Assembly (NCBI GenBank): GCA_964607005.1
Contig: CAZSHO010000001.1
Span: 98,457-122,456 of the forward strand
DNA: 24,000 nucleotides
Direction of reading: 5' to 3'
Source of the DNA: an uncultured Rhodocyclaceae bacterium
GTDB lineage: Bacteria > Pseudomonadota > Gammaproteobacteria > Burkholderiales > Rhodocyclaceae
Below the pieces are notes generated by a model that worked only from the letters and a program-made list of their open reading frames with translations, had not been told where the DNA came from and did no database searches. A program made the position numbers and the translations under genes. The first letter of the stretch is position 1; each line of letters begins with the position of its first letter. Positions 2,353 to 21,405 of the stretch are shown here, in pieces.

Positions 2353-2863
2353 CAAATCTCCCGTCAATCCGGCCGTACTGATCGGCCAGGTGCTGTTTTA
2401 CGGCCTGTTTGCCGTCATCATCGGCTATTTTTCAACGTCTCCCACCTTCACGCACATCGATCCTGGCCTGTCGTTGATCAAGCTCTCCTTCAGTACCCAG
2501 GCCGAGCCGGTGGGCGAGTGCCGCAACCGGACACCGGAAGAGCTCGCCAAGCTCGCACCGAATATGCGCGCACCGCGTATCTGCCCGCGCGAGCGCTCGC
2601 CGATCAAGGTCAGCATCAGCCTGGACGGCCAGCCGCTGTTCGAAGGCAGTGCACCCCCGGCCGGGCTGTCGAAGGACGGCCCCTCGACGCTCTACGAACG
2701 CTTTGAAGTCTCCGCAGGCAAGCATACGCTCTCGGTCAAGATGAACGATAACGTCAATATTCCCGGCTTCAATCATGTGCGCGAAGAAACGGTTGACCTG
2801 AAACCAGCGCAGATCCTCGTCATCGATCTGCGCAAGGACCGTGGCGGCATCATCTTTGAATGA
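2345..2863 (+). CDS. Small membrane-anchored protein of unknown function (one N-terminal TM helix plus a soluble beta-rich domain)
   Basis: The ATG overlaps the upstream stop by 8 nt (ATGGTTAG). Third codon positions are GC-rich. The N-terminal helix is VLIGQVLFYGLFAVIIGYF. There are two Cys (GECRNR, RICPRE) but no CxxCH and no CuA-type ligand set. Confidence 0.6.
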   Translation: MVSKSPVNPAVLIGQVLFYGLFAVIIGYFSTSPTFTHIDPGLSLIKLSFSTQAEPVGECRNRTPEELAKLAPNMRAPRICPRERSPIKVSISLDGQPLFEGSAPPAGLSKDGPSTLYERFEVSAGKHTLSVKMNDNVNIPGFNHVREETVDLKPAQILVIDLRKDRGGIIFE

Positions 2864-4257
2864 AGGCAAGTCTTGAATGCGGGCCGGAGGCGGCAGGGAC
2901 GGCTTTCCTCCTGACACCTGCTGATGCACGGCTCACCGGCATCGCCCGCGGCTGGCTCTGGCTGGGCCTGCTCGCCCTGATCGGTTCGGGGCTGCTATCG
3001 ATCATCCTTGTCCTCTCGCGCGCGCCACAATTTCAAAAACTCCTGCCGGCCGGAGACTTCTTTCGCACGGCCCTCGTGGTGCACGTTGATCTCTCCGTTC
3101 TCGTCTGGTTCATCTCGCTGGGCGGCATCCTGTGGACGCTGTCGGGCACGGTGCGCGCACTCTGGCTCAATCGCGCGGCCCTGCTCATCGCCGGACTGGG
3201 CACCCTGCTGATAACCCTCTCGCCATTCATCGGCCACGGCACGCCGATCATGGCCAATTACATTCCGGTACTCGACAATCCCGCCTTCCTCTGGGGATTG
3301 GTGATTTTCGGCTCAGGGGCGGTCGTGCTGGTACTGCGCAGCCTGATCGCCATGCCCGGCTGCTCCATGCCCCGAAGCGGCGAGGAAGCCCTGCAGGCCG
3401 GGCTCTCGCTCGGTCTGCTGCCCGCCGTCATCGCCATCATGGCCTTTGTCTGGTCTTGGCTGACGCAACCGGCCGGTCTGGGTGACAAAGCCTTTTACGA
3501 AATCCTTTTCTGGGGCGGCGGCCACGCACTGCAATTCATCTGGACGCTGTTCATGCTGGTCGCCTGGCTATGGCTGGCAAGTGCCTGTGGCGCACGCGTG
3601 CCGATGAGTCCGCGCATTGCTCTGCTCTGCTTTTTCCTGGCGGTGATCGGTGCGCTGGCAATCCCGGTTGCCTATCTCCTCTGGCCTGCCCATGCCGTCG
3701 AACACCGCAACCTGCTCACCTTTGCCATGGGGCTGGGCGGCGGGCTGCCGATCCTGCCCGTGGCGCTGGCCGTGCTGCTGGCCGTGCCTCCCGCACGTTC
3801 CATCGACGATGATGCGCGTCCCCTGCGTGCTGCCCTGTATGCCTCACTCGCCCTGTTCTGTTTCGGCGGTCTCATCGCGTTCACCATTTCGGGCAGCAAC
3901 GTCAAGATTCCTGCCCACTATCACGGCTGCATCGTCGGTGTCACCCTGGCGCTGATGGGGCTGGTGTATCACCTGCTGCCACACCTCGGTTATGCCCGGC
4001 CGGCACGCAAGGCCGCCACCTTTTCTTCGTATTGCTATGCCGCGGGACAGGCCCTGCACATCGGCGGCCTGATGTGGTCGGGCGGTTACGGCGTGCAGCG
4101 CAAGGTGGCCGGTGCTGAACAGGCCCTGAGGAGCACCAGCGAAATCGTCGCCATGGGCATCATGGGCATGGGCGGGCTCGTCGCCATCATCGGCGGACTG
4201 GTATTCGTCGTGGTTGTCCTGCTCGCCATGCGAAACAGACGGAGGAATGTCCCGTGA
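2860..4257 (+). CDS. Divergent heme-copper oxidase / NO-reductase superfamily subunit I-like protein (12 predicted TM)
   Basis: It shares an ATGA overlap with the upstream gene. There are twelve hydrophobic segments. His residues sit at HCO ligand-equivalent positions: H75 (VVHVDLSVLVWF, helix II), H222 (LFWGGGHALQF, compare aa3 WFFGHPEVY, helix VI), H278/H282 (WPAHAVEH, helix VII region) and H353/H355 (PAHYHGCIV, compare AHFHYV, helix X). The spacing H75-H222-H278-H353 (147/56/75) resembles cbb3 CcoN. Confidence 0.7.
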   Translation: MKASLECGPEAAGTAFLLTPADARLTGIARGWLWLGLLALIGSGLLSIILVLSRAPQFQKLLPAGDFFRTALVVHVDLSVLVWFISLGGILWTLSGTVRALWLNRAALLIAGLGTLLITLSPFIGHGTPIMANYIPVLDNPAFLWGLVIFGSGAVVLVLRSLIAMPGCSMPRSGEEALQAGLSLGLLPAVIAIMAFVWSWLTQPAGLGDKAFYEILFWGGGHALQFIWTLFMLVAWLWLASACGARVPMSPRIALLCFFLAVIGALAIPVAYLLWPAHAVEHRNLLTFAMGLGGGLPILPVALAVLLAVPPARSIDDDARPLRAALYASLALFCFGGLIAFTISGSNVKIPAHYHGCIVGVTLALMGLVYHLLPHLGYARPARKAATFSSYCYAAGQALHIGGLMWSGGYGVQRKVAGAEQALRSTSEIVAMGIMGMGGLVAIIGGLVFVVVVLLAMRNRRRNVP

Positions 4258-4442
4258 ACGATCCGCAAGGCCTTGCCGAAACCGTACGACGCGCCTGTAT
4301 CGAGGTAGCGCTGGAAGCCTACGAAGATGCCCAGGTGCGCGGCCTGTGCCACGAAGGCGCATGGGAAGTGGCCATCGGCGCCCTGCGCTCCCTCGACCTC
4401 AAAGCCCTCCTCGCCGCAGCCGGGAAAGAACAACCCGATTAA
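4254..4442 (+). CDS. Small 62-aa conserved-looking hypothetical protein, translationally coupled to the HCO-like gene
   Basis: Its GTG start overlaps the upstream TGA (GTGA). Third codon positions are GC-rich, like the neighbouring genes. It contains a Cys/His pair (RACIE...GLCHEGAW). No family was recognised. Confidence 0.5.
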   Translation: MNDPQGLAETVRRACIEVALEAYEDAQVRGLCHEGAWEVAIGALRSLDLKALLAAAGKEQPD

Positions 4443-5590
4443 TCGGCACAGCCCTGCCGTCCGCTCAGTGCCGTCAGCGCCCACAGCACCTGTACGAAAA
4501 ACACCGCCAGCCCGGCGAATGCCAGCCAGAAACCGGCAGTCCAGCCGAATGCCACCAGCCCGCCTCCGAGGAGAAAAGTCAGTCCTCGCAAGACGGCGTG
4601 ACGTCCCAGCCGCAGGCGTACCCCACGATGCCAATCGCCCTGCATGCCGGGCCGCAGCCAGACCGGCAACAACTGGCTGGCCGCACCGGTGACCAGCGGT
4701 AGCAAAAACATCAGCAGAAACCCGGGAATCGCCTCGCGTGCAGGCAACACGCCTGCCGCATGCAGCACGCCGAGGAGAAGCAGCAATCCCCATCCGCTCA
4801 AGGCAAGAGCAAGCAGCGGTGCGGCACCATGCCGGCAGAGCACTTGCATGCGAAGCGAGCGCAGCCAGCCACGCCCGAGCAAAAAAAACGGCACGAGCAA
4901 AAGCAACGCACCTGCATACGCCAGAGGCGGCCACCAAGCGGCACCCGCAGCCACCAGCAGTGCACCGGCAAGGCTGGGCATACGCATGCGCCGCAGCCAG
5001 TGCGCGGCCTGTGGATCAGGCTTCGCGGCCGCCGTCGGCAGCAGCACGGCAAGCGTGCCCAGGGCGGCGAGTCCGACAAACCCGAGCGTGTTCAGATGCA
5101 GATGGAACAGCCGCAAGGCTGTGCGTTGTTGCGGCCAGAGCGGCAGGATCAGCGCCGCCAACAAGGCCAGGACGAGACACAGCACGGCGGCCAGATACCA
5201 GTACAGACCGGGGTGTGGCGCCCCCAGGGTGGCGCGAGCTCGCCGCACGATCCACGCCGCCATGATCAGGGCGGCGACGAGCACCAGCGTGGCAGCGGCA
5301 TGGACAAGCGGGTTGAAAAATACCGGATGGTGAAAGGCAGCCACCACCAGCACGCCGGCGGCCAGCGGCAGCCACGGCAGATAGCACAGTGGCGTGGCCG
5401 GTGCCGCACTGCGCGTGAGCACCGGCACGAAATACAATATGGCGGCAAAGATCAGCGGCAGAACACCAATGGCAAAAGCCACGTGCGCGGCCAGCGCCGG
5501 GCTGGTGTACCCGGTGACGAAAAGGCCCAGCGCCACGGCAAACGCTGCACCGGCGACGGCCACCAGAAACGGCAGGATGCTGCCTCGCAC
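4439..5590 (-). CDS. Polytopic integral membrane protein (about 10-12 TM), possibly a distant NnrS-like protein
   Basis: 383 aa, very hydrophobic, with a GTG start. The motif HLHLNTLGFVGLAALGTLAVLLPT resembles the NnrS HAHEMLFGF..GF..T..P core but is not canonical. It lies directly downstream of a DUF2249 gene, a common NnrS neighbour. Confidence 0.45.
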   Translation of the reverse strand: MRGSILPFLVAVAGAAFAVALGLFVTGYTSPALAAHVAFAIGVLPLIFAAILYFVPVLTRSAAPATPLCYLPWLPLAAGVLVVAAFHHPVFFNPLVHAAATLVLVAALIMAAWIVRRARATLGAPHPGLYWYLAAVLCLVLALLAALILPLWPQQRTALRLFHLHLNTLGFVGLAALGTLAVLLPTAAAKPDPQAAHWLRRMRMPSLAGALLVAAGAAWWPPLAYAGALLLLVPFFLLGRGWLRSLRMQVLCRHGAAPLLALALSGWGLLLLLGVLHAAGVLPAREAIPGFLLMFLLPLVTGAASQLLPVWLRPGMQGDWHRGVRLRLGRHAVLRGLTFLLGGGLVAFGWTAGFWLAFAGLAVFFVQVLWALTALSGRQGCAD

Positions 5591-5616
5591 GCGGCCCGGG
5601 CTTGAAGAGGGAACGA

Positions 5617-5877
5617 TTATTTCTTCTTGGCGAAATCGATGACGACCTCGCCCGGCACCCGCTGCACGTAGCTGATCTCGATCTTGTCACCGAAGCGCGA
5701 CATCAGTTGTTCGAGCAGGGGCAACGGATCGTGATCGTTGCAAAAGCGCATCGTCTCGCCGGGGAACAGGGCTTCGAAAGCTCCGAAGATCGCCGCATGG
5801 CGAAAGCGCTTGGCAATGCCACGCGCATCGAAGGGATAGAGCTTGTCATCCTGCAGGTGCAGATGGGGATCGGCCAT
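5617..5877 (-). CDS. DUF2249-domain protein
   Basis: 86 aa with the DUF2249-like pattern FDARGIAKRFRHAAIFGAFEALFPGETMRFCNDHDPLPLLEQL. A strong SD (AAGGAG) precedes the ATG, and an FNR/DNR box lies upstream. Confidence 0.75.
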   Translation of the reverse strand: MADPHLHLQDDKLYPFDARGIAKRFRHAAIFGAFEALFPGETMRFCNDHDPLPLLEQLMSRFGDKIEISYVQRVPGEVVIDFAKKK

Positions 5878-5942: not shown

Positions 5943-5956
5943 TTGATGCAAATCAT
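5943..5956. promoter_or_regulatory. FNR/DNR/NnrR-type binding box TTGATgcaaATCAT in a divergent promoter region
   Basis: It matches the TTGAT-N4-ATCAA consensus at 9 of 10 positions. The centre is about 72 nt from the DUF2249 ATG and about 94 nt from the 6044 ATG. -10-like hexamers lie about 22 nt away on both sides (TATGTT toward the plus gene, GACAAT toward the minus gene). Confidence 0.6.
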
Positions 5957-6043
5957 GGAAGCCGGATCATTAAGGTCTTATGTTTCCTCATAAATTAAAA
6001 GGTTATCCTTCCCGACAGATACTCCCCGACCTGGCAGACCTCC

Positions 6044-7972
6044 ATGCTCAAGCTGACCCACAAAACCCTGCAATGGTTTTTCATGCGTGTCGAAGGCCTT
6101 TTCAACCTGGCTTTTGGCGAAAAACTCAATCCGCTCTATCACCTGGGCACCATCACCTTCTGGCAGTTCTGGCTGGTCGCCGTGAGCGGCCTGTACCTCT
6201 TCGTCTTCACCGACACCGGCGTCAAGGATGCCTACCTGTCTGTCGAACGCATCACCCATGTCCAGTGGTGGGCCGGCGGCATCCTGCGCAGCATCCACCG
6301 CTACGCCTCGGACGGCATGATCCTCACCATGTTGCTGCACATGGTGCGCCATTTCGCCTTTGACCGCTATCGCGGTTTTCGCTGGTTCTCCTGGATGACC
6401 GGTGTCGTGCTGATCTGGCTGGTGTACATCTCGGGCATCAATGGCTTCATGCTGGTGTGGGACCGTCTTGCGCAATTCGTGACCGTCACCACCGCCGAAA
6501 TGTTCGACTGGTTTCCGATGTTTCATGGCGTGGTCATCCGCAACTTCATTTTCGAGGGTGCGGTCAATGACCGTCTGTTCACCCTGTTCGCCTTCATTCA
6601 TCTGGGCGCGCCCCTGCTGGTGCTGATGGTGATGTGGATCCACGTCCAGCGCGTGCCGCGCGCCAACATCAATCCGCCACGGACGATCGCCCTCTGGGTG
6701 ACGCTCACCTTCGTCGTGCTCTCCCTCGTCAAGCCGGTCGTCAGCCAGGGGCCGGCCAACCTCTCGGTCGAAGTGGGCAAGCTCGATTTCGACTGGTTCC
6801 TGCTGCCGGTCTTTGCCCTCGTCTATGAATGGCCGATGAAATACATCTGGGGGCTGCTCTTCGGTCTCACCGGTCTGCTGTATCTGTTTCCCTGGCTGCC
6901 GCCCAAACGGCGTGGCGCAGCCAAGGCCGAACTGGACATCAGCGTGCATCCGGACAACAAAACGGTGCAGGCGCACTTTGGCGAAACCATCCTCGATGCC
7001 GGCCTGCGCAACGACATCAATCTGCCCTACGAATGCCGCAATGGCGGCTGCGGCCTGTGCAAGTGCTCGGTACTGCAAGGCGAGGTCGATGCCGGTCTCT
7101 ACCAGCCGGAAGCACTCAGCGAAGCCGAGCGGGCGATGGGCAAGGTGCTGATGTGCTGCGCCACACCGCTCACCGACATCGAAATCGAATACGAACCGCA
7201 GTTCGCCCTGGTGCGAGCCCCCATCAAGGAATACGCCGGCACCGTCGACAAGATGGAAAAACTCACCCATGACGTCATGGGAGTGACGATCCGGCTGCCG
7301 CAAGGCGAGCGCATCGCCTTCAGCGCCGGTCAGTACATCAACATCATCCTCGAGGATGGTGCGCGGCGTGCCTTCTCGTTTGCCAGCGCACCGCACAACG
7401 CCGAACACATCGAGCTGCAGATCCGCCTCGTGCCGGGCGGACGCTTCACGACACAGGTCTTCGAGACGATGAAGGTGGGTGATCCGGTCCGCTTCGAAGG
7501 CCCGCTCGGCGACTTTGTCCTGCGCGAATCGAGCCGGCCGATCATCTTCGTCGCCGGCGCCACCGGCTTCGCACCGGTGAAGAGCATGGTCGAGGATGCC
7601 TTCCACCGCGGGCTGAAACGGCCGATCCGTCTCTACTGGGGCATCCGCCATCCGCAGGACCTCTACATGGCCGACCTGCCGGAAAAATGGCAGCAGGAAC
7701 ACGGCACTTTCAAGTTCATCCCGGTCGTCTCGGAACCTGCGGACGGGGATGGCTGGAACGGGCGCACCGGCCTCGTGCATGAGGCCATCCTGCAGGATTT
7801 CCCCAGTCTGGCCGGCAATGAAATCTACGCCTGCGGCTCGGTGCGCATGGTTGAGGCAATCTTTCCCCAACTGAAGAACCATGGGGCGGAAGAAGGCATG
7901 TGCTTCTCGGACGCTTTCACCCTCTCGGCACGCTCCATGGCGCTGCAGGTACCGGAGGACCCGGCGGGCTGA
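6044..7972 (+). CDS. Fusion protein: diheme cytochrome b + plant-type [2Fe-2S] ferredoxin + FNR-family FAD/NAD(P)H oxidoreductase
   Basis: The N-terminal domain is paralogous to 775-1500, with the same two His pairs 14 residues apart (RSIHRYASDGMILTMLLHMV; FIHLGAPLLVLMVMWIHVQ). It has the C-x4-C-x2-C...C motif (YECRNGGCGLCKC...VLMCCATP). FNR-family motifs are present: RAFSFAS, GPLGDF, FVAGATGFAPVKSM and YACGS. Confidence 0.85.
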   Translation: MLKLTHKTLQWFFMRVEGLFNLAFGEKLNPLYHLGTITFWQFWLVAVSGLYLFVFTDTGVKDAYLSVERITHVQWWAGGILRSIHRYASDGMILTMLLHMVRHFAFDRYRGFRWFSWMTGVVLIWLVYISGINGFMLVWDRLAQFVTVTTAEMFDWFPMFHGVVIRNFIFEGAVNDRLFTLFAFIHLGAPLLVLMVMWIHVQRVPRANINPPRTIALWVTLTFVVLSLVKPVVSQGPANLSVEVGKLDFDWFLLPVFALVYEWPMKYIWGLLFGLTGLLYLFPWLPPKRRGAAKAELDISVHPDNKTVQAHFGETILDAGLRNDINLPYECRNGGCGLCKCSVLQGEVDAGLYQPEALSEAERAMGKVLMCCATPLTDIEIEYEPQFALVRAPIKEYAGTVDKMEKLTHDVMGVTIRLPQGERIAFSAGQYINIILEDGARRAFSFASAPHNAEHIELQIRLVPGGRFTTQVFETMKVGDPVRFEGPLGDFVLRESSRPIIFVAGATGFAPVKSMVEDAFHRGLKRPIRLYWGIRHPQDLYMADLPEKWQQEHGTFKFIPVVSEPADGDGWNGRTGLVHEAILQDFPSLAGNEIYACGSVRMVEAIFPQLKNHGAEEGMCFSDAFTLSARSMALQVPEDPAG

Positions 7973-8041: not shown

Positions 8042-9289
8042 TCAGTCCGGCAGCGCGATCCTGCCGTCCTTGCTGAGGAGATAATCCCTGAAGACGTGTT
8101 CGGCACTGAGCAGCTGATAGCTGCCATCGGCCAGTTTGTGCGAGGTGTCCTTCAGGCGATACGTGGTTGCACCGCAAGTCCAGCAGTCAAAGTTGCGCAT
8201 GTGGGTGCACAGGCAGGTTTTGTCCTTGACGCTGATCGTCTTGGCGCCAGGGTTTTTTGCCAGCTCCCGATAATAGGCGTCGATATAGTCGCAATGCCCC
8301 TTGGCATCGAGCAGATAGCCATAGGCCTCACAATTGGGCCGGATGCCGGCGCCGATCGCCGGGCTGCTCTTCAGCATGCGCATCGGATATCCGGTCGGCG
8401 AAATGCCGTTGACCTCGATGTCCTCTTCGTTTGCCTTGAAGTATTCCTGCTTGACATCGTCCGGCAGACCGCATTCGTGCGTCACGGTGAAGCGCGTGGC
8501 CACCTGGATGGCCGCGGCACCGGCTTCGAGATACTCGACGGCGTCGCTGCCAGTGAAGATACCCCCGGCCGGAATCACCGGAATGTCGAGTTTTTCCTCG
8601 CGCAGCCACTGCATGATTTCGGCAACGATGGCGCGCAGATCGTATTTCATCCAGTCGTCGAGACCGAAACCGAGGTGCCCTCCGGCCAGCGGTCCTTCCA
8701 CCACGACATAATCGGGCAAGCGACCGGTGCGTGCACTTTTCTTGATGAAGATTTTCAGCGCGCGCAAGGATGAGACGATGATGCCCAGTTTCACATCCGC
8801 AAAGCGCGGGTGCTCTTCGATCAGATCGAAGGTTCCCATGTGCAGGCCGGCCGCCAGTGTGATGCCGTCGATGCCGGCATCCATGGCGGAAGTCAGACGG
8901 ATGCGCAGCGTCTCCTTGGGCGCATTCATCGTCAGCTTTTCCATGCAGTTGATGAAGATCAGCCCGTCGCCGCGCTTGGCATCCATGGTGCGCCCGACAT
9001 GCAGGCGCGTCGCCTCGGCGACGTCGCTCAGATCGAACTGGACTTCGGACTTGTCCGGGTTGGCGACATTGTATTTGTAGCGCTTTTGCTTGGCACTGAC
9101 GAATTTGGTGTCGTAGCGGCGATCGGTCACCGTGCGGGTCATCGCATCCGAGATATGGCCGATGCCGCCCAGGCGGGCCGCCACCAGGGCCAGATCGGTC
9201 GCCGAGATGTCCACGCCCATGCCGCCAATCATGATCGGCACCAGTTCGCGCCCGCTCAGACGCAGACGAAAATCATCCACACTTTTCAT
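8042..9289 (-). CDS. Nitronate monooxygenase (2-nitropropane dioxygenase, NPD)-family FMN oxidoreductase with a Cys-rich C-terminal extension
   Basis: It has the N-terminal IMIGGMGVDIS...LGGIGHIS motif, plus VVVEGPLAGGHLGF and IPVIPAGGIFTGSD, which are typical of the NMO/FabK-like TIM-barrel family. The C-terminal roughly 90 aa carry 7 Cys. Confidence 0.7.
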   Translation of the reverse strand: MKSVDDFRLRLSGRELVPIMIGGMGVDISATDLALVAARLGGIGHISDAMTRTVTDRRYDTKFVSAKQKRYKYNVANPDKSEVQFDLSDVAEATRLHVGRTMDAKRGDGLIFINCMEKLTMNAPKETLRIRLTSAMDAGIDGITLAAGLHMGTFDLIEEHPRFADVKLGIIVSSLRALKIFIKKSARTGRLPDYVVVEGPLAGGHLGFGLDDWMKYDLRAIVAEIMQWLREEKLDIPVIPAGGIFTGSDAVEYLEAGAAAIQVATRFTVTHECGLPDDVKQEYFKANEEDIEVNGISPTGYPMRMLKSSPAIGAGIRPNCEAYGYLLDAKGHCDYIDAYYRELAKNPGAKTISVKDKTCLCTHMRNFDCWTCGATTYRLKDTSHKLADGSYQLLSAEHVFRDYLLSKDGRIALPD

Positions 9290-11060: not shown

Positions 11061-12656
11061 TCAGTGGCTGGTGCCCTCCGAACGGGTGATCTTGTTCCAG
11101 ACATTGTATTTACCGACCGGTTTGCACGCCGGGATGCGCTTCACTTCCTTCAGCGTCGCCGCATCAAAGACGATCAGCGCACCTTCCTGTTCCATCAGGC
11201 TCGCCAGCGCATAGCGGCCGTCCTTGGTGAATTCGACGTGCGCAAGTGTCTTGCCCGGTTCCGGACGCAGATGGGCGACAACTTCCAGCGTCTGCTTGTC
11301 GATCACCGTCAGGGTGTCCTTGTGTTCGCGGCTCATCATCGAATCGGTCCAGGCATAGCGGGAGTTCTCATGACTACGCATGAAAAATCCCGGACCGGGT
11401 GTCGGAATCTGCCGCACCGTCTTCCAGGTCTTCATGTCAATGACGCTGATGACGCCTTCTTTCAGATTCGGTGTCGCCATGACGCGGCGGCCCTGCCAGT
11501 CCCAGGTGATGCCCGAACCCAGATGCGGCATACCGGGCAGATCGAGTGTGGCGATGCTGCGCCGGACATCCAGATTCACCACCTGTCCCTTGCCGGCGCC
11601 CTGGCTCGCACCCATCACTTCCTTGTAATCCTGGGTGAAGAAGAAATCATCGAGAAAATCATCGACAATCGAACGGCGCGGATTGAGGAAACCCGGCACG
11701 AAAGCACCTTCACGGTATCGATAGTCATGGATATAGCCGGCGGGAATGTCCGGCGCCGTCCTGTCATAGCTGACTTCCCAGACTTCCTTGACGTCCTTGA
11801 GCGCGGCGACAAAGCTCTTGCGCGGCGCGGCATCATAGACGGCCGAGACGCGTGAGCTGCGCTTGCCTTCCTCCTCGCGCACCTCGAGAATTTTCACCGG
11901 ATTGAGATCGGCATCGAGGATTACCAGGGTATGCGGCAGATAATTGGCAACCGCCACATACTGGCCATCGCCGGAGACGGCGGCATTGCGCGTGTTGATG
12001 CCGGCGCGCACTTCGGCAACCATCTTCAGGTTCCACAAGTCGTACTTGGAGATCCAGCCATCGCGCGAGGCAAAGAAGACATAGCGCCCATCCGGTGTGA
12101 ATTTCGGCCCGCCATGCAGGGCAAAGCGCGAAGCAAAACGTGCAATCGGCTCGAGCTTGTCGCCGTCGAGAATCGTCACGTGGTGATCACCGCCTTCGAC
12201 CACGACGAACAGATTCATCGGATCGGCCGAAAATACCGGTCTGGCGGGAAGGCTGCCCGGTGCATGATGGATCACGTGAGAGGCGCGAATCTGCGCTTCA
12301 TCCCACTGCGGCATCGGCACCGGCGTGTAGAGGTAATCGGCGAGCGCCTGGATCTGCCCGGGCGTGAGCGTCTGCCGAAATGCCGGCATCTGCACGTTCG
12401 GACGACTGTCGCGGATCACCTTGAGCGCTTCGGGCTTACGCAGGCGCGCAAGATTCTCCGGCAGCAGGGCCGGCCCCATGCGGCCAAAACGATCGGCGCC
12501 ATGACACTCGGCGCAGTGCTGGCGATACAGTTCGGGCACCGTCTCGGCAGCGGTTGCAGAAGCATTCACCACAGAGAGGCAGAGACACAGGAAGAAAAGA
12601 AGATACCTGGCTGCCCTCTGTGCCGGTGTGTCTCCATGATGAAACAGGGTTTTCAT
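11061..12656 (-). CDS. nirN: NirN, cytochrome c + cd1-like beta-propeller protein (dihydro-heme d1 dehydrogenase)
   Basis: It starts at MKTLFHH, with an ATGA overlap onto the nirJ stop. It has a signal-like N-terminus, a CAECHG heme c motif, a cd1 propeller, and the conserved C-terminus GKYNVWNKITRSEGTSH. The ORF-track N-terminal 81 aa lie inside nirJ in another frame. Confidence 0.9.
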   Translation of the reverse strand: MKTLFHHGDTPAQRAARYLLFFLCLCLSVVNASATAAETVPELYRQHCAECHGADRFGRMGPALLPENLARLRKPEALKVIRDSRPNVQMPAFRQTLTPGQIQALADYLYTPVPMPQWDEAQIRASHVIHHAPGSLPARPVFSADPMNLFVVVEGGDHHVTILDGDKLEPIARFASRFALHGGPKFTPDGRYVFFASRDGWISKYDLWNLKMVAEVRAGINTRNAAVSGDGQYVAVANYLPHTLVILDADLNPVKILEVREEEGKRSSRVSAVYDAAPRKSFVAALKDVKEVWEVSYDRTAPDIPAGYIHDYRYREGAFVPGFLNPRRSIVDDFLDDFFFTQDYKEVMGASQGAGKGQVVNLDVRRSIATLDLPGMPHLGSGITWDWQGRRVMATPNLKEGVISVIDMKTWKTVRQIPTPGPGFFMRSHENSRYAWTDSMMSREHKDTLTVIDKQTLEVVAHLRPEPGKTLAHVEFTKDGRYALASLMEQEGALIVFDAATLKEVKRIPACKPVGKYNVWNKITRSEGTSH

Positions 12657-13795
12657 TTCAGCCCGATCTCCTCGTCGGTGAGATAGCAGCCCGGGTCTTC
12701 CGCCCAGGGGTTGCCCGTCAGTTGCAACGCACGCACGCGCGTGTTGCCATCGCAGATGTCGAAGTGGGCGCAGCCGGCGCAGCGCCCGCCGATCCGGCGC
12801 GGCTTGTTCTTCAGCCCGGCCATGATCGGGTCGGTGGTGTCTGGCCAGATTGCGGAGAAGGGCCGTTCGCGCACATTGCCCAGGGTGTGGTGCCACCACA
12901 TCGTGTCGGGGTGGACATTGCCGAGGTTATCGATGTTGGCGACATTCACACCGGAGGAATTGCCGCCCCACTGGACGAGTCTGGCGCGGATATGGGCGGC
13001 ACGCTCGGGAAAGTGCTTTTCCACCCAGTGGAGGAAATACACGCCGTCGGCATCGTTGTTGCCCGTGGTGAATTCCTTCTTCAGGCCGCGCTGCATATAG
13101 CTCCAGCAGGTGTCAAAGAGCAGGTCCATCGCCTGGCGCGTCATCTGGTGATGGGCATCATCCTTGCGATTCTTGTTGCCGCGGCCAGCATAGTTCAGAT
13201 GCGAGAAGTAGAAGCGGTCGATACCCTCGTCCTCGACCAGTTGCAGCAGCTGCGGCAGGTCCTGGACGTTGTCCCGCGTCAGGGTGAAGCGCACGCCGAT
13301 CTTCAGATCAAGCTCCCGGCACAGGCGGATGCCGGCGAGCGAGCGCTCGAAGGCGCCCTGCAGGCGACGGAACTGGTCATGCGTCTGGCGGATGCCGTCA
13401 AGGCTCACCCCCACGTAGTCAAAGTCAGTTGCGGCGATACGGCGGATATTGGATTGATCGATAAGAGTGCCGTTGGTCGACAGCCCGACATAGAAGCCCA
13501 TCTCCTTGGCGCGCCCGGCAATCTCGAAAATGTCCGGGCGCAGCAACGGCTCGCCGCCGGAGAGGATCAGCACCGGCACACGAAAGCGCTTGAGATCCTC
13601 CATCACCGTGAAGACTTCCTGCAGATTCAGTTCGCCGGCAAACTCCTTGTCGGCGGAAATCGAATAGCAGTGCTTGCAGGTGAGGTTGCAGCGGCGGATC
13701 AGGTTCCAGATAACCACCGGTCCCGGAGGATTGCGCTTCTCGCCCGGCGGCGTGGGATGGGCAATCTCTTCCATGTATTGGGAAATTCTGAACAT
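12653..13795 (-). CDS. nirJ: NirJ, radical-SAM heme d1 biosynthesis protein
   Basis: It has the CNLTCKHCY radical-SAM CxxxCxxC motif and a C-terminal Cys cluster (GGRCAGCAHFDICDGNTRVRA). The preferred start is ATG 13795 (MFRISQYM), with GGAGA 7 nt upstream. The ORF track uses the TTG at 13801. Confidence 0.9.
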   Translation of the reverse strand: MFRISQYMEEIAHPTPPGEKRNPPGPVVIWNLIRRCNLTCKHCYSISADKEFAGELNLQEVFTVMEDLKRFRVPVLILSGGEPLLRPDIFEIAGRAKEMGFYVGLSTNGTLIDQSNIRRIAATDFDYVGVSLDGIRQTHDQFRRLQGAFERSLAGIRLCRELDLKIGVRFTLTRDNVQDLPQLLQLVEDEGIDRFYFSHLNYAGRGNKNRKDDAHHQMTRQAMDLLFDTCWSYMQRGLKKEFTTGNNDADGVYFLHWVEKHFPERAAHIRARLVQWGGNSSGVNVANIDNLGNVHPDTMWWHHTLGNVRERPFSAIWPDTTDPIMAGLKNKPRRIGGRCAGCAHFDICDGNTRVRALQLTGNPWAEDPGCYLTDEEIGLK

Positions 13796-13910
13796 GCTCA
13801 ATTCTCCGCCAGGCCGCGCCGGGGAGGGCTGCGGTCATCAGCATGAAAGTCGCACAGCGACTGAACCGTTGTCACCCCTTTCCTCGGGGAAGGGGACGGA
13901 GGACAGATCG

Positions 13911-14408
13911 TCATATTCCGATGCGCAGTCCGGTTTTCTTCAGGATCCGGCTGCTGTAGAGAACATCATGGGTGCGGCACGCCGATCCGAGCAGGCCGGC
14001 GATTTCCAGTACCTGTCCCTCAACGTCCTCCCGGCTGCGGCCATGCACCATGGCGAACAGATTGTAGGGCCACAATGGCAAGGCGCGCGGGCGGTGATAG
14101 CAATGTGTGACGAAAGGCAGACGCCCTACCGCCGCGCCGAGTGTATCGATGCGTTCATCCTCGACATCCCAGACGCTCATGCCGTTGGCAACATAGCCGA
14201 GCGCATAGTGGTTGGGTACCGCGCCGATGCGGCGGATGATGCCCTCTTCAAGCATGCGCGCCAGACGCAGTTTGACTTCTTCCGCGTCGATACCGAGACG
14301 ATCCGCCAGTGCCGCATAGGGGCGTGGCACCAGCGGCAAACCGCCTTGCGTCTCCAGGATCAGGCGGCGATCAAGCCCGTCGAGCGGTTGCACCATGCCT
14401 GCCTTCAT
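13911..14408 (-). CDS. nirH: NirH, AsnC/Lrp-like siroheme decarboxylase subunit
   Basis: The start MKAGMVQPLDGLDRRLILETQGGLPL has an ATGA overlap with the nirG stop. It has Lrp/AsnC-like NirD/L/G/H family motifs (VPNHYALGY, VTHCYHRPR..WPYNLFAMVHG). Confidence 0.85.
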   Translation of the reverse strand: MKAGMVQPLDGLDRRLILETQGGLPLVPRPYAALADRLGIDAEEVKLRLARMLEEGIIRRIGAVPNHYALGYVANGMSVWDVEDERIDTLGAAVGRLPFVTHCYHRPRALPLWPYNLFAMVHGRSREDVEGQVLEIAGLLGSACRTHDVLYSSRILKKTGLRIGI

Positions 14409-14848
14409 GCCGCCAGCTTCATCCCGACAAAATATTCCTTCAACTTCGGAAAGGCATGAACCTTCAAACCCGTAGCGCATTCGATCTTTTCAATCGCTGC
14501 CGTAATCCCTGCGGGTGCCTCGGTGGCGAGCACGAACCACATGTTGAGCGTGTGCTCGCGCCGATAGTTGTGGGCGACTTCGGGCAGCGCATTGACGCAG
14601 GCAGCGATCCGGTCATAGTCGGCCTCCGGCACGACCAGTGCCGCCAGTACAAAGGCACCGCCCATGCGCTCGACCTGGAACATCGGGCCGAAACGCGTCA
14701 GCGTTCTGGTCTCCAGCAGCCGTTGCAGGCGCATGATCAGGACCTCTGCGGTCAGGCCCAATGACTCGGCAACTTCGCGGTAGGGCTCATCGCTGAGCGG
14801 AAAGCCGCCCTGCACGGCATTGATGATGGCGCGATCCGTCTCATCCAT
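14405..14848 (-). CDS. nirG: NirG, AsnC/Lrp-like siroheme decarboxylase subunit
   Basis: MDETDRAIINAVQGGFPLSDEPY...EVAHNYRREHTLNMWFVLA. It overlaps the nirDL stop by 8 nt and sits between nirDL and nirH. Confidence 0.85.
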   Translation of the reverse strand: MDETDRAIINAVQGGFPLSDEPYREVAESLGLTAEVLIMRLQRLLETRTLTRFGPMFQVERMGGAFVLAALVVPEADYDRIAACVNALPEVAHNYRREHTLNMWFVLATEAPAGITAAIEKIECATGLKVHAFPKLKEYFVGMKLAA

Positions 14849-15833
14849 GTGCGGCTTCGACCTGCGGGATGTAGAGGGCGCCGCGCTGCTTGAAGCGGCG
14901 GCGCGAAAAAAGCACTTCGTAACGTACTGCTTCGAGCCCCAATCGGTCGCGCAGACGCACCACCGCAGCCTCGACCTCGGTGCGGCTACGCCCGTGAATC
15001 ATGCAATAGAGATTGTAGGGCCACTGTGGCAGATGGCGGCGACGCTTGTAGCACAGGGTTACTTCGGGTTCGGCGGCGAACAGGCGGCCGATGCGCTCGG
15101 CCTCGTGGTCGGGCAGGTCCCAGACAACCATGGCGTTGGAGACGAAGCCCAGTTCGTGATGCCGCACGATGATGCCAAAGCGCTTGATGAGACCCTCGCC
15201 ACGCCAGGCCTTGATCATGGCAATCACTGTGGATTCATCCAGACCGGCCTGTTCGGCAAGGCGAGCGAAAGGACGTGACACCAGCTCAAGACCGTATTGC
15301 AGCACGCCAAGCAGGCGCTCCTCATCGAAAGTCAGTGTTCGCAACACGGCGCCATCGATGCGCCGTGCGGCATAGGGCGACTTGCAGACACCCGCCAGAT
15401 CGAATCCGAGGTCGATGTAAAACTCGTATTCGAGCGGCAGGGAGAGTACCGGATAGCCCAGCTCGCGGCCGATATCGGCAAGCGCCCCGTCCAGATGTGC
15501 CTGGTCGGGTGCAGTGACGACGAACCACAGGTTGTAATGATGCTCGCGCTCGTAATTGTGATTGACTTCGGGCCGGGCACTCACTTTGCGCGCCAGCTCG
15601 ACAAGCTGCGGCGGCGGCACGGCCACCGCCGCCAGGGTGCTTGCGCCGATGCGGCGCGGTGCGAGCACGGCGCCCACACGGCTCACCACACCGCAGGCCT
15701 GCAGCCGGCGCAATGCCGCCAGGACCGTCTCCTCATCGATGCACAGCCGCCAGGCCAGTTCGGCGAATGGCTCCGAATCGAGCGGGAAGCCGCGCTGGAA
15801 TTCATTGACCAGGCGAAAATCAAGCGAGTCCAT
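14841..15833 (-). CDS. nirDL: NirD-NirL fusion (NirDL), siroheme decarboxylase
   Basis: 330 aa made of two tandem AsnC/Lrp-like modules (FRLVNEFQRGFPL...EVNHNYEREHHYNLWFV and LLGVLQYGLELVSRPF...TLCYKRRRHLPQWPYNLYCMIHG). Confidence 0.85.
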   Translation of the reverse strand: MDSLDFRLVNEFQRGFPLDSEPFAELAWRLCIDEETVLAALRRLQACGVVSRVGAVLAPRRIGASTLAAVAVPPPQLVELARKVSARPEVNHNYEREHHYNLWFVVTAPDQAHLDGALADIGRELGYPVLSLPLEYEFYIDLGFDLAGVCKSPYAARRIDGAVLRTLTFDEERLLGVLQYGLELVSRPFARLAEQAGLDESTVIAMIKAWRGEGLIKRFGIIVRHHELGFVSNAMVVWDLPDHEAERIGRLFAAEPEVTLCYKRRRHLPQWPYNLYCMIHGRSRTEVEAAVVRLRDRLGLEAVRYEVLFSRRRFKQRGALYIPQVEAAHG

Positions 15834-15842
15834 GCGCTTTCC

Positions 15843-17012
15843 CTAGAAGCCGATACGATGGGCGCGGCTGGTGAAGAAAATGCCGGAGGGTCCGGACACG
15901 GGGAGTTGTGCCAGACGGGCAAAGCTTGACGTGTCGTAGATCACCACGCGGTTATCGTCGCGTGCCGAGATCCACACCTGATCGCCGCGCGGCGTGAATT
16001 CCATATGAAGTACCGCCTTGCCGGGGGCAAGCGTCTGCACGATCTTCTGCTCGAAGGTGTCGATCACCTGCACCTGGCCATAATCCGGAAAGGCGAAGTT
16101 CACCCAGATCTGGCGGCCATCCGGGCGCGCCATGACGAACACCGGCTGTCCCTTGACGGCAATGCGCCCCACTTCCTGCCAGCTGGTCGTATCCACCACC
16201 AATACTTCATGACGCCCGATCGCCGGCAAATAGGCGCGGTTGCCGGCCACCGCCCAGCCACGCAGATGCGGCATCTTGAACACCGGCAGCTTCTCCTCCC
16301 CCCGGCCGTAATTGGCCAGGATCCGTTTCACGCCCTGCTGTGGCTGCCACAGGTCCAGCAAGGCCAGGCCATCCTCGCCGAACAGGCCGGCGATGTAATA
16401 GCGGCCATCGGGAGTGATCAGCGCATCGTAAGGCTGTCTGCCGATCGACTTGAATTTCGTGATGTGCGGCTGGCGCGGATCGGTCAGATCAGCCACCCAG
16501 ATCTCGCCGGCATCAAAGAGGGAGAAGACGAATCTATTGCCCGGTGCATCGGCAAGCCCGACCACCTTGGAAAACTGCCGGCCATCGCCGTAGGCGGCCG
16601 GAATGTCGGCGAGCAGTTCCAGCGTGCCGGCATCGAACACCTTGACACCACCGGGCTGGTAATTCTGTGCGGCGACCAGCCGTCCGTCCTGCGAGATGGC
16701 ACCACCGATGGAATTGCCGGCCTGCAGGATGCGCCGCTCGATCTTTTGTGCAAGCACATCGACCTTGCTCAGGCCCCCATCGCGGCCAAACACATAGGCA
16801 TAGCGTCCATCACGCGCATAGACAACGGAAGCATGGGACAGATCGCCCAGTCCTTCGACCTCACCCAGCATTGTGCGCGCAGAGGTATCGACCACCGCCA
16901 CGGCACCACGGGCGCGCTCGATGACCACGCCCAGATCGCCCGTACCGCGCAGTGCCGGTGTCGCACAGGCGGCAAGCAGCAGGGCGGACAGGAGCGGGAG
17001 CAGGAGTTTCAT
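15843..17012 (-). CDS. nirF: NirF, cd1-like beta-propeller heme d1 biosynthesis protein (lipoprotein-type signal)
   Basis: MKLLLPLLSALLLAAC lipobox. Propeller repeats are homologous to NirS/NirN, and the conserved C-terminus is GIFFTSRAHRIGF. The ATG at 17012 overlaps the nirC TGA by 1 nt; a GTG at 17015 is also possible. Confidence 0.9.
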   Translation of the reverse strand: MKLLLPLLSALLLAACATPALRGTGDLGVVIERARGAVAVVDTSARTMLGEVEGLGDLSHASVVYARDGRYAYVFGRDGGLSKVDVLAQKIERRILQAGNSIGGAISQDGRLVAAQNYQPGGVKVFDAGTLELLADIPAAYGDGRQFSKVVGLADAPGNRFVFSLFDAGEIWVADLTDPRQPHITKFKSIGRQPYDALITPDGRYYIAGLFGEDGLALLDLWQPQQGVKRILANYGRGEEKLPVFKMPHLRGWAVAGNRAYLPAIGRHEVLVVDTTSWQEVGRIAVKGQPVFVMARPDGRQIWVNFAFPDYGQVQVIDTFEQKIVQTLAPGKAVLHMEFTPRGDQVWISARDDNRVVIYDTSSFARLAQLPVSGPSGIFFTSRAHRIGF

Positions 17013-17359
17013 CACTTTGTCTCTTCAGGAAAGCCGTGTCTGAGCTGACGGACCACCCAGTCCGCCTCGTTTTCGTTCATGAAACGCTTCCAGGGCGGCA
17101 TCGCCGTCCCCGGACGGCCGTTCAGAATGGTGTCGCGCAGCGATCCGGCCGGCTTGTCGCGCAGGGCCTGGGGCAGCAGCGAAGGCCCGAGCCCGCCCTT
17201 GAGTGTCAGGCCATGGCACGAACCACAATCCTCGCGCACCATATGCACCAGCTCCTGTGCGCGTTCAGGCGACGGGTCGGCCGCCCGGGACAGCAACGGA
17301 ACCCACTGTATCGCAAGCAGCGCGAAAAGAATTGGGCCCGTCTTCAGATTGGCGTTCAT
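17012..17359 (-). CDS. nirC: NirC, monoheme cytochrome c (c55X)
   Basis: 115 aa with a signal peptide (ILFALLAIQWVPLLSRA) and a single CGSCHG heme c motif with PPW downstream. It sits between nirS and nirF. Confidence 0.85.
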   Translation of the reverse strand: MNANLKTGPILFALLAIQWVPLLSRAADPSPERAQELVHMVREDCGSCHGLTLKGGLGPSLLPQALRDKPAGSLRDTILNGRPGTAMPPWKRFMNENEADWVVRQLRHGFPEETK

Positions 17360-17410
17360 CGTTCCGCTCAGGATGCCTGTAATTACCCCGGGAAGCTTTG
17401 ACTTTTCTCA

Positions 17411-17445
17411 ATTTTTAAAACAAGCGGGGGCCCGCAGGCCCCCGC
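17411..17445 (-). terminator. Rho-independent terminator/attenuator downstream of nirS
   Basis: On the minus strand, GCGGGGGCC-tgcg-GGCCCCCGC forms a 9-bp GC stem followed by TTGTTTTAAAAATT. It starts 27 nt after the conserved nirS stop codon at 17472-17474. Confidence 0.8.
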
Positions 17446-17471
17446 TCGATTCGGCTTGCGCCGATGCCGGA

Positions 17472-19329
<1,858 letters not shown>

Positions 19330-21194: not shown

Positions 21195-21318
21195 GAGACA
21201 AGCCTCATGCCGGATGACCGTCCATGGGGCCGGAAAACCTTTCGAGAATCCGCGCCGATCGCATCTGAAGAGAAGAGAGTCTGTCGTATGTCTTGCAGGA
21301 CTGCCTGCGCTGCATTCA

Positions 21319-21405
21319 TGGTGCCGGGAGGGGGACTCGAACCCCCACACTGTCGCCAGCGGCGGATTTTGAGTCCGCTGCGTCTACCAATTCCGCCATC
21401 CCGGC
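21319..21405 (-). tRNA. tRNA-Leu (anticodon CAA), 87 nt with long variable arm and encoded CCA
   Basis: The minus-strand sequence is GCCGGGATGGCGGAATTGGTAGACGCAGCGGACTCAAAATCCGCCGCTGGCGACAGTGTGGGGGTTCGAGTCCCCCTCCCGGCACCA. The acceptor stem GCCGGGA/TCCCGGC, the anticodon stem GCGGA/TCCGC with loop CTCAAAA, and the T-arm GGGGG-TTCGAGT-CCCCC all pair. Confidence 0.95.

Follow-up and report, generated by a model that had tools for sequence, protein, structure and literature searches.

The stretch analysed here, referred to below as the window, is a piece of 24,000 nucleotides from an uncultured Rhodocyclaceae bacterium (contig CAZSHO010000001.1, positions 98,457 to 122,456), and the gene of interest lies on its plus strand at positions 6044-7972. 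As judged from Pfam matches and motifs, this gene encodes a fusion protein of 642 amino acids (aa) composed of a cytochrome b, a [2Fe-2S] ferredoxin, an FAD domain and an NAD(P) domain. The four Pfam matches are Cytochrome_B (aa 24-201, 3.9e-15), Fer2 (aa 302-375, 2.5e-15), FAD_binding_6 (aa 400-491, 3.2e-15) and NAD_binding_1 (aa 502-606, 3e-21), and all of them are well over their cut-offs. A 634-aa antisense open reading frame (ORF) at 5978-7882 overlaps the gene. Since the GC content at third codon positions (GC3) is 0.81 in the fusion frame and 0.61 in the antisense frame, the plus strand is the coding strand, and the antisense frame is a high-GC shadow ORF.

An earlier note on this DNA had described a single 642-aa ORF joining a diheme cytochrome b to a plant-type ferredoxin and FNR-family domains. 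Pfam, motifs and orthologues confirm that description, whose reading of the domains was correct. A survey of domain architectures, proposed in the same note as a check, found the identical five Pfam domains in more than 100 clusters (90% identity clustering, several data sources) at 68-85% identity, and the full-length gene is present in 42 genomic loci, including the complete genomes AP021857.1, LR778301.1 and CP107246.1. The recurrence of the same architecture in these clusters and loci rules out an assembly chimera.

The membrane domain (aa 1-295, positions 6044-6928) has six helices, A to F, which correspond to cytochrome b6 followed by the first two helices of b6f subunit IV. Among solved structures, its first 212 residues align to cytochrome b6 (E 1.7e-16). 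In this alignment, the ligands of the p-side haem are H85 and H186 (codons 6296-6298 and 6599-6601) and those of the n-side haem are H99 and H200 (codons 6338-6340 and 6641-6643). H85, H99, H186 and H200 equal H86, H100, H187 and H202 of cytochrome b6 and are invariant in 40 of 40 full-length orthologues, the set across which the invariance of all residues of the fusion protein was judged. The His-His spacing on helix D is bc1-like, and the position of b6 Cys35, the haem ci cysteine, is occupied by His33, so that the signature of haem ci is missing. Residues 220-283 match b6f subunit IV only, across the whole PDB; these matches are marginal (E 0.13-0.8) and collinear. By this marginal alignment, F249-D250-W251-F252 (positions 6788-6799) corresponds to PEWY in the ef loop of the Qo site. 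The pairs D250-W251 and W139-D140 do not vary among the orthologues, and D250-W251 is also present in the cytochrome b paralogue encoded at 775-2352.

The C-terminal half starts with a plant-type [2Fe-2S] ferredoxin domain (aa 296-385, positions 6929-7198), assigned by Pfam and by structure match, with the invariant motif C331-x4-C336-x2-C339...C371. It continues with an FNR-type FAD domain (aa 395-491) and an NAD(P) domain (aa 500-620), together at positions 7226-7903, whose best structural matches are GcoB, BenC and NqrF. The FAD motif R442-x-F-S445 with G465/G466 is invariant, and so are the NAD(P) motif G505-A-T-G-F-A-P (G505xxG508) and C597-G598. The CX4CX2C...C signature of BenC-type reductases is present together with equivalents of the FNR motifs RxYS, GxxGxxP and CG. 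The haem, [2Fe-2S], FAD and NAD(P) residues are all invariant.

Foldseek matched this half to GcoB, BenC, CarAd, T4moF and NqrF with E values from 1.8e-29 to 1e-18 (8e-27 for 1krh). Its identity is 27-33% to the oxygenase reductases and 21-24% to NqrF. The scores of the NCBIfam equivalog models were all below cut-off, with 218.7 versus 430 for BenC, 121.6 versus 295 for nqrF and 186.5 versus 230 for the NAD(P)H-flavin reductase model, and MmoC and AntC were likewise below theirs. The NCBIfam model of Hmp matches aa 423-621. Neither an oxygenase gene nor nqr genes (nqrA-E) were found among the window ORFs near the fusion gene.

Basic residues of the fusion protein are concentrated in the N-terminus, the B-C loop, the D-E loop and the linker after helix F. 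By the positive-inside rule, these clusters place the ferredoxin-FNR (Fdx-FNR) part in the cytoplasm, adjoining the n-side haem. The chain NAD(P)H-FAD-[2Fe-2S]-haem b-haem b put forward earlier is consistent with this topology and with the motifs. In an AF2 model of the whole protein, computed from a shallow alignment, the ferredoxin, FAD and NAD domains come after six membrane helices (pLDDT 68.5, pTM 0.43).

The left part of the window contains further plus-strand genes. The gene at 2-703, whose 5' end is cut by the window edge, encodes a Sco1/SenC-like thioredoxin-fold protein with an invariant CxxxC motif and His and with a C-terminal membrane helix. It is followed at 775-2352 by a gene for a paralogous cytochrome b fused to a 2x[4Fe-4S] domain and an MvhD/FlpD domain (cytochrome b-Fer4-MvhD). 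The membrane domain of this paralogue is 47% identical to that of the fusion protein and shares with it the four His and the DW motif. The MvhD/FlpD domain resembles the C-terminus of HdrA2, and longer forms of the cytochrome b-Fer4-MvhD protein (~690 aa) have an additional C-terminal region without Pfam match.

The frame at 2345-2863 overlaps both neighbouring genes, which indicates translational coupling, and encodes a 172-aa protein with one membrane helix and a periplasmic beta-sandwich. This protein has neither a CuA nor a Rieske motif and belongs to no Pfam family; C59 and C80 are invariant and H127 is nearly so. Its family has about 2200 members, every one annotated as hypothetical. The model of the 172-aa protein, which is a confident one (pLDDT 91.5), shows the single membrane helix and the beta-sandwich. 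Foldseek gave nothing at E <= 0.001 for it, and the matches listed included neither a cupredoxin nor a Rieske protein. A role as CuA subunit or Rieske analogue was rejected, because hhalign gave a probability of 0.2 against the CuA subunit and only generic beta-sandwich matches were obtained.

The gene at 2860-4257 encodes a 465-aa protein that profile comparison identifies as a divergent paralogue of haem-copper-oxidase (HCO) subunit I. Its COX1 match is weak and a phmmer search against the PDB returned no match, while the profile of its family is collinear with that of eNOR-I over 446 columns (probability 100%, E 1.5e-81). The protein retains both sets of haem ligands (H75/H355 and H353), H222 as the first metal ligand and the motif GVQRK for the haem propionates. 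The HH of helix VII, which makes up two of the three FeB/CuB histidines, has given way to A271 and an invariant Y272. Judging by these residues, it is a dihaem paralogue of eNOR-I without the canonical FeB/CuB site. An assignment as eNOR itself was discarded on the database results and the missing helix VII HH, and in orthologous loci the true eNOR-type genes lie upstream, in a part that the window does not cover. The three FeB His and the CuA subunit II of an eNOR are not found in the pair formed by the 465-aa and 172-aa proteins. The family of the 465-aa protein has more than 6000 sequences, which are named 'cbb3-type cytochrome c oxidase subunit I', 'cytochrome c oxidase subunit 1' or 'hypothetical protein' in the sources.

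A genome scan yielded 49 loci, and after added look-ups there were 42 loci with a full-length fusion gene. Their taxa include Rhodocyclales, Accumulibacter, Gallionella, Sideroxydans, Ferrigenium, Rubrivivax and Polaromonas, and the complete genomes are those of Ca. Desulfobacillus denitrificans, Denitratisoma oestradiolicum and Ca. Nitricoxidivorans perseverans. The comparison with Rhodocyclales genomes that had been suggested earlier returned orthologues, and the window is most similar (84-85% identity) to uncultured Rhodocyclales related to Ca. Desulfobacillus. Among the 42 loci, the most constant companion of the fusion gene is the gene of the small 172-aa protein (41/42), followed by those of the HCO-like protein (40/42), the second cytochrome b and the Sco-like protein (38/42 each), and eNOR-I accompanies it in 35 loci. 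Partners are missing mostly at contig ends, and the clearest genuine exception is locus L013.

The order of these genes varies. In the window type, sco, cytochrome b-Fer4-MvhD, the small gene and the HCO-like gene are followed by two minus-strand genes and then by the fusion gene. The Gallionellaceae have the order sco, fusion, small, HCO-like, cytochrome b-Fer4-MvhD, and loci L050 to L052 have sco, cytochrome b-Fer4-MvhD, small, HCO-like, fusion, ctaA; in L050, the HCO-like and fusion genes are joined by an ATGA overlap. In Denitratisoma, Nitricoxidivorans and Accumulibacter, the small gene directly precedes the fusion gene and the HCO-like gene is convergent. Because the linkage persists through four gene orders at 50% identity, a functional unit is strongly supported, and the fusion protein is very probably one component of a conserved eNOR-linked module. 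In this respect the earlier note has to be amended: it had pictured a self-contained chain, and the fusion gene sits, with few exceptions, inside a module of several genes that adjoins those of eNOR. For the same reason, the electron acceptor is probably a partner protein and not simply the quinone pool.

The genes to which the module is attached form a pair located directly before sco in 35 of the 42 loci, with ctaB often following the pair. The first gene encodes a subunit II of 179-185 aa with the CuA motif CGEYCG...HHTM, and the second an HCO of 563-569 aa with HH in helix VII, HFH in helix X and Gln replacing the cross-linked Tyr. The pair fits the published description of eNOR, an enzyme with a CuA subunit and without Tyr in the active site, whose operons in many cases include ctaA and which was reported in Accumulibacter and Gallionellaceae KS (PMC11214002). 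The ctaA gene is frequently near the eNOR-type pair, and is the one directly downstream of the fusion gene in L050; it is not present within the window. In the orthologous loci nearest to the window (L001-L010), sco comes directly after eNOR II and I. The eNOR genes of the window lineage would sit just past the left window edge. Loci L042 and L049 belong to Ca. Ferrigenium altingense and Ca. Ferrigenium bremense and have the same gene set, with orthologues ~50% identical; a 2026 preprint identifies these genes as eNOR in both genomes (bioRxiv 10.64898/2026.01.22.701106). In Ca. Nitricoxidivorans perseverans (L058, CP107246.1), the cluster of eNOR and module genes adjoins a Crp/Fnr regulator gene and lies a few kb from a norC/norB-like (cNOR-type) cluster.

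An FNR/DNR-type box, TTGATgcaaATCAT, is located at 5943-5956 (plus strand) in the divergent promoter region between a minus-strand DUF2249 gene and the plus-strand fusion gene. Its centre is 94.5 nt ahead of the ATG of the fusion gene, as the earlier note had it (about 94 nt), and it is conserved. The DUF2249 gene (5617-5877, 86 aa) forms with the gene of a polytopic membrane protein (4439-5590, 383 aa, no known family) a divergent two-gene unit (4439-5877, minus strand) that shares this promoter region. The polytopic membrane protein is kept at 56-66% identity in Rhodocyclales loci. Allowing up to one mismatch, five boxes were observed in the window versus 0.55 expected by chance. A box is present upstream of the fusion gene in 14 of 14 related loci that share the window arrangement, of which L001-L010, L015, L023 and L034 have DUF2249 divergent upstream and L013 has the membrane-protein gene alone.

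When the upstream regions of the 13 loci with DUF2249 were aligned with the window, the box appeared as an island of identity amid diverged intergenic DNA, and a conserved TAT(A/G)TT began 29.5 nt past the box centre. This -10-like hexamer is TATGTT in the window (5979-5984, plus strand) and TATATT in the orthologous loci. A class II FNR promoter has its site at -41.5 and its -10 hexamer at -12 to -7. The spacing of box and hexamer matches this class II geometry, directed at the fusion gene, with a transcription start predicted near position 5991. No FNR box with up to one mismatch was found within 700 nt before the sco-like first gene in 32 loci. In the window lineage, the fusion gene thus has an FNR/DNR-type class II promoter to itself, and the conserved box and the promoter geometry lend support to the suggestion that it may be controlled by anoxia or NO.

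An exhaustive search with residues 1-300 of the fusion protein gave 2320 representatives at 50% clustering. Among the best 150 of them, cytochrome b with Fer4 and MvhD was the commonest recognisable architecture (53/150), and the Fdx-FNR fusion appears there as a narrow offshoot of the cytochrome b family. In the cluster of locus L053, the Fdx-FNR form is replaced by a fusion of cytochrome b with flavodoxin, FAD and NAD domains, a CPR-like diflavin reductase (P0143, L053:8001-10484, 827 aa). The eNOR cluster of L053 also holds PCuAC, CtaG, Sco, NnrS, a Crp/Fnr regulator and a hemerythrin-DUF2249 gene. In locus L057, a NuoF-like NADH module is flanked on either side by a cytochrome b-Fer4-MvhD gene; the whole cluster (L057:2069-13991) comprises NirK-like, eNOR-like, two cytochrome b-Fer4-MvhD, NuoF-like, HCO-like, ctaB and sco genes. 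Next to this cluster, at 15485-18121, a Rieske/cytochrome b pair distinct from it neighbours a GltD-like NAD(P) oxidoreductase, an arrangement that recalls the anammox complexes. Three kinds of NAD(P)(H)-binding module are thus joined to cytochrome b in eNOR clusters, namely Fdx-FNR, CPR-like and NuoF-like. Their recruitment to the same cytochrome b argues that coupling of pyridine nucleotides to the eNOR system is the conserved function.

Two other fusions bear on the partner proteins. P0209, a metagenomic ORF, joins cytochrome b in frame to an HCO-like protein (54% identity over 421 aa), and P0238, a metagenomic ORF from locus L055, joins a Sco domain to cytochrome b and Fer4. The latter suggests that the Sco-like protein may be a redox or copper subunit and not only a CuA chaperone. 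P0207, a distant family member, lies outside any eNOR cluster, so the association with eNOR is not universal across the cytochrome b superfamily.

The earlier note had mentioned a cytochrome b/b6 joined to NAD(P)/flavin domains, discussed for polyphosphate-accumulating Rhodocyclales as a hypothetical quinol:NAD(P)+ oxidoreductase, and in substance this is right. PMC4930944, which cites Garcia-Martin 2006 and Skennerton 2015, treats a 'novel quinol reductase' of Accumulibacter that is proposed to re-oxidise quinol anaerobically; this is presumably the cytochrome b/b6 protein in question. An Accumulibacter locus (L014) has a full-length orthologue of the fusion gene that is 70% identical and may be the same gene. 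A full-text literature search for the Accumulibacter 'cytochrome b/b6' discussion matched only PMC4930944 and PMC2289847, and the protein is not mentioned in Oyserman 2015.

The preprint on Ferrigenium straubiae (bioRxiv 10.64898/2026.01.22.701106) describes an eNOR operon in which eNOR II and I are accompanied by genes for haem o synthase, sco1 and a 'scaffold protein' and by two bc1 chain C-like genes. One of the latter two encodes a protein with cytochrome b, [Fe-S], FAD and NADH domains (IMG 2878407319), named there 'quinol:NAD+ oxidoreductase'. The proteins were detected in the proteome during denitrifying Fe(II)-oxidising growth, and the authors suggest a supercomplex that links NO reduction to NAD+ reduction. 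Neither this preprint nor the 2006 Accumulibacter proposal, as cited in PMC4930944, gives biochemistry of the family, and in the passages concerned neither comments on the loss of metal ligands in the HCO paralogue or on reductase modules of other kinds. The published function of quinol:NAD(P)+ oxidoreductase is hypothetical and made at the level of annotation. Since the family had already been flagged in the literature in this way, the fusion protein is not new as a sequence type.

Taking the cofactor chain, the topology, the module membership and the FNR/DNR-type promoter as established, we infer the direction of electron flow and the acceptor. The reading that we prefer, with a probability of about 0.42, is a forward input in which NAD(P)H supplies electrons that cross the membrane and enter the eNOR/HCO-like system. 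Under anoxia or NO, electrons would pass from cytoplasmic NAD(P)H through FAD and the [2Fe-2S] cluster to the n-side haem (H99/H200), and then cross the membrane by way of the p-side haem (H85/H186). They would finally reach a P-side acceptor within the module, which could be the haems of the HCO-like paralogue, the CuA of eNOR or both, possibly via quinone in the retained Qo-like pocket. The net effect would be a bc1-independent, NADPH-oxidase-like electron wire that supplies NO reduction. GcoB, BenC, CarAd, T4moF and NqrF all oxidise NAD(P)H, and forward flow is favoured because the characterised BenC/GcoB/NqrF-type and CPR-type relatives all work in this direction. Moreover, the window ORFs and the module genes of all loci yielded neither a Rieske domain nor a cytochrome c1 or f, and a Rieske-like first acceptor would be needed for bifurcation of the Qo type. 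Of the two directions that the earlier note had allowed, the one from quinol to NAD(P)+, driven by proton-motive force, is topologically unfavourable, because from a P-side, Qo-like site the electrons would move uphill against the redox gradient and against the membrane potential. Finally, the cluster is carried by Ca. Nitricoxidivorans perseverans, which grows on NO and was reported to be without bc1, b6f and ACIII (PMC10390337). The lack of these complexes means that this bacterium needs another electron route to its N-oxide reductases.

Several points weigh against the forward reading. NuoF-type modules are reversible, and the eNOR-linked module is present in autotrophic Fe(II) oxidisers, which would gain by making NAD(P)H. 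The putative Qo-site signatures W139-D140 and D250-W251 are retained by both cytochrome b paralogues, which suggests P-side quinol/quinone chemistry rather than a simple wire. The cytochrome b-HCO fusion P0209 is known from one 3.9-kb contig alone, and the AF2 model of the whole fusion protein is moderate (pLDDT 68.5). Both published opinions, in the passages cited above, prefer the direction from quinol to NAD(P)+. The main rival, which we regard as possible and still rather unlikely, takes up this direction as a Rieske-less, Qo-type bifurcation ('NAD cycle') that would make the protein an NO-driven quinol:NAD(P)+ oxidoreductase. One electron of a quinol at the P-side pocket would go to the HCO-like protein or eNOR and ultimately to NO/N2O at +1.18 V, and the other would run from the p-side haem to the n-side haem, [2Fe-2S], FAD and NAD(P)+. 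Such a scheme agrees with the invariant Qo motifs of both paralogues, with the tight gene linkage to eNOR, with the existence of the reversible NuoF-like variant and with the presence of the module in autotrophic Gallionellaceae, which require reverse electron flow. Its thermodynamics would be favourable, as the mean acceptor potential of ~+0.43 V exceeds that of Q/QH2. The same idea was proposed in the preprint on Ferrigenium straubiae, whose proteome contained the proteins, and what has been proposed for anammox complexes of the Rieske/cytochrome b type that include NAD(P) oxidoreductase subunits offers a precedent (PMC12954380). However, no Rieske or other identifiable first acceptor is encoded, and the second electron would face both the opposing membrane potential and an uphill entry into BenC-/CPR-type modules known only as NAD(P)H oxidisers. 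The family also occurs in heterotrophic denitrifiers, where NADH is plentiful, and the original Accumulibacter version, anaerobic and acceptor-free, has no high-potential sink. In a slightly less probable form, eNOR and the HCO-like dihaem protein would join both of the Rieske-less cytochrome b fusions in a supercomplex that bifurcates at a Qo-type site and sends one quinol electron to NO reduction and the other to NAD(P)+ or the Fer4-MvhD acceptor.

It is considerably more doubtful that the fusion protein acts in maturation, by passing NAD(P)H electrons across the membrane for the building of eNOR cofactors. It might supply haem A synthase (CtaA), as yeast ferredoxin Yah1 and its reductase Arh1 support Cox15, or serve metal insertion with the HCO-like protein as scaffold. 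Such a role would suit four unknown genes amid assembly genes, with ctaB and sco upstream, ctaA directly downstream in L050, and PCuAC and CtaG within the L053 cluster. It would also suit an HCO-like protein that retains haem ligands and not catalytic metal ligands. A chaperone system would not readily account for Qo-like motifs that never vary or for a duplication of cytochrome b that brings in another input domain, there is no ctaA inside the window, and ordinary aa3 oxidase operons do, to our knowledge, without such genes. The modified haem a of eNOR and the ctaA gene of many eNOR operons (PMC11214002) can be counted for maturation, and so can the 'eNOR scaffold protein' named in the Ferrigenium preprint. 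The least likely reading of all is a partner-free, stand-alone NAD(P)H:quinone oxidoreductase. Every needed cofactor is indeed within one polypeptide, and in the window the fusion gene is expressed from a promoter not shared with the remaining module, from which two opposite-strand genes set it apart. Against this reading stand the near-universal module linkage through four gene orders and the translational coupling to the HCO-like gene in L050. In addition, quinone reduction on the P side would presumably dissipate proton-motive force, unlike that by NDH-2.

The family bears on the anaerobic reducing power of Accumulibacter, debated since 2006, on NAD(P)H formation in nitrate-reducing Fe(II) oxidisers, and on the electron supply to N-oxide reductases in an NO-respiring bacterium without bc1/ACIII. 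The present analysis reframes the fusion protein as a subunit of a widespread eNOR-attached module, not a free-standing quinol reductase, and this module includes a haem-copper-oxidase paralogue stripped of its catalytic metal ligands. The tie to eNOR, the degenerate HCO paralogue and the interchangeable reductase module turn the matter into a sharper and directly testable question. If forward flow is correct, the module would provide a new bc1-independent path from NAD(P)H to NO, relevant to N2O emission. If bifurcation is correct, it would represent a new energy-conserving principle, and in its supercomplex form it would harvest the very high potential of NO/N2O and give iron oxidisers and NO respirers a direct NAD(P)H route. 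Denitratisoma oestradiolicum and Ferrigenium straubiae are isolates that could serve as experimental hosts.

The remaining part of the window contains other genes. Convergent with the fusion gene is a nitronate monooxygenase-like (NMO/FMN) gene (8042-9289, minus strand), which is found at the same position, with 81-84% identity, in Rhodocyclales loci only. A cd1 nitrite reductase cluster (11061-19298) comprises nirS, nirJ, nirD/L/G/H-type genes, nirF and nirN, and then come queA and tgt. The listed nirS ORF (612 aa, GTG start) overlaps nirJ, and its start is probably over-extended. FNR-type boxes with one mismatch each are present at 19285-19298 and 19316-19329, at and just upstream of the start of the nirN-like gene (17649-19298, minus strand), and a NosR/NirI-like gene (19371-21350, minus strand) lies beside the two boxes.

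Compared with known systems, the fusion protein resembles b6/subunit IV and bc1 cytochrome b in its four bis-His ligands on helices B and D and in its collinear helices A-F. As in b6f and bc1, a W-D motif opens the cd helix; an ef-loop motif aligns to PEWY at marginal E values. It differs from these complexes in having no Rieske protein, cytochrome c1/f, haem ci cysteine or helices G/H, and its reductase fills the side where their Qi site lies; the helix D His-His spacing is unlike that of b6f and like that of bc1. With BenC, GcoB, CarAd, T4moF and NqrF it shares a reductase module that begins with a plant-type [2Fe-2S] domain and goes on to FAD and NAD domains of the FNR type, and NqrF is likewise membrane-anchored and feeds a respiratory complex. 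Unlike the BenC-class proteins and NqrF, it has sub-cut-off scores and no oxygenase or Nqr partner, and in it the module is joined to a membrane domain with two haems.

As a functional analogy, NOX/ferric reductase and Hmp likewise combine a b-haem domain with an NAD(P)H/FAD module of the FNR type. In NOX, electrons pass through the membrane via two stacked haems, and Hmp is NO-inducible. The fusion protein differs from both in the unrelated fold of its haem domain, in its additional [2Fe-2S] cluster and in the Qo-like pocket that it seems to have kept. The anammox complexes Kuste4569-4574 and Kustd1480-1485 have Rieske proteins and multihaem c subunits, and their separate NAD(P) subunit carries [4Fe-4S]/[3Fe-4S] clusters, in all of which they are unlike the fusion protein (PMC12954380). 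Like it, they have a cytochrome b core linked on the cytoplasmic side via Fe-S and FAD to NAD(P), and like the module they are connected to N-oxide metabolism, with bifurcation proposed for both (PMC12954380). The Ferrigenium and Accumulibacter proteins are also close. According to the preprint, IMG 2878407319 has its domain order and operon partners in common with the fusion gene; the gene order differs from that of the window, and in the window lineage the fusion gene is placed under a separate FNR/DNR promoter.

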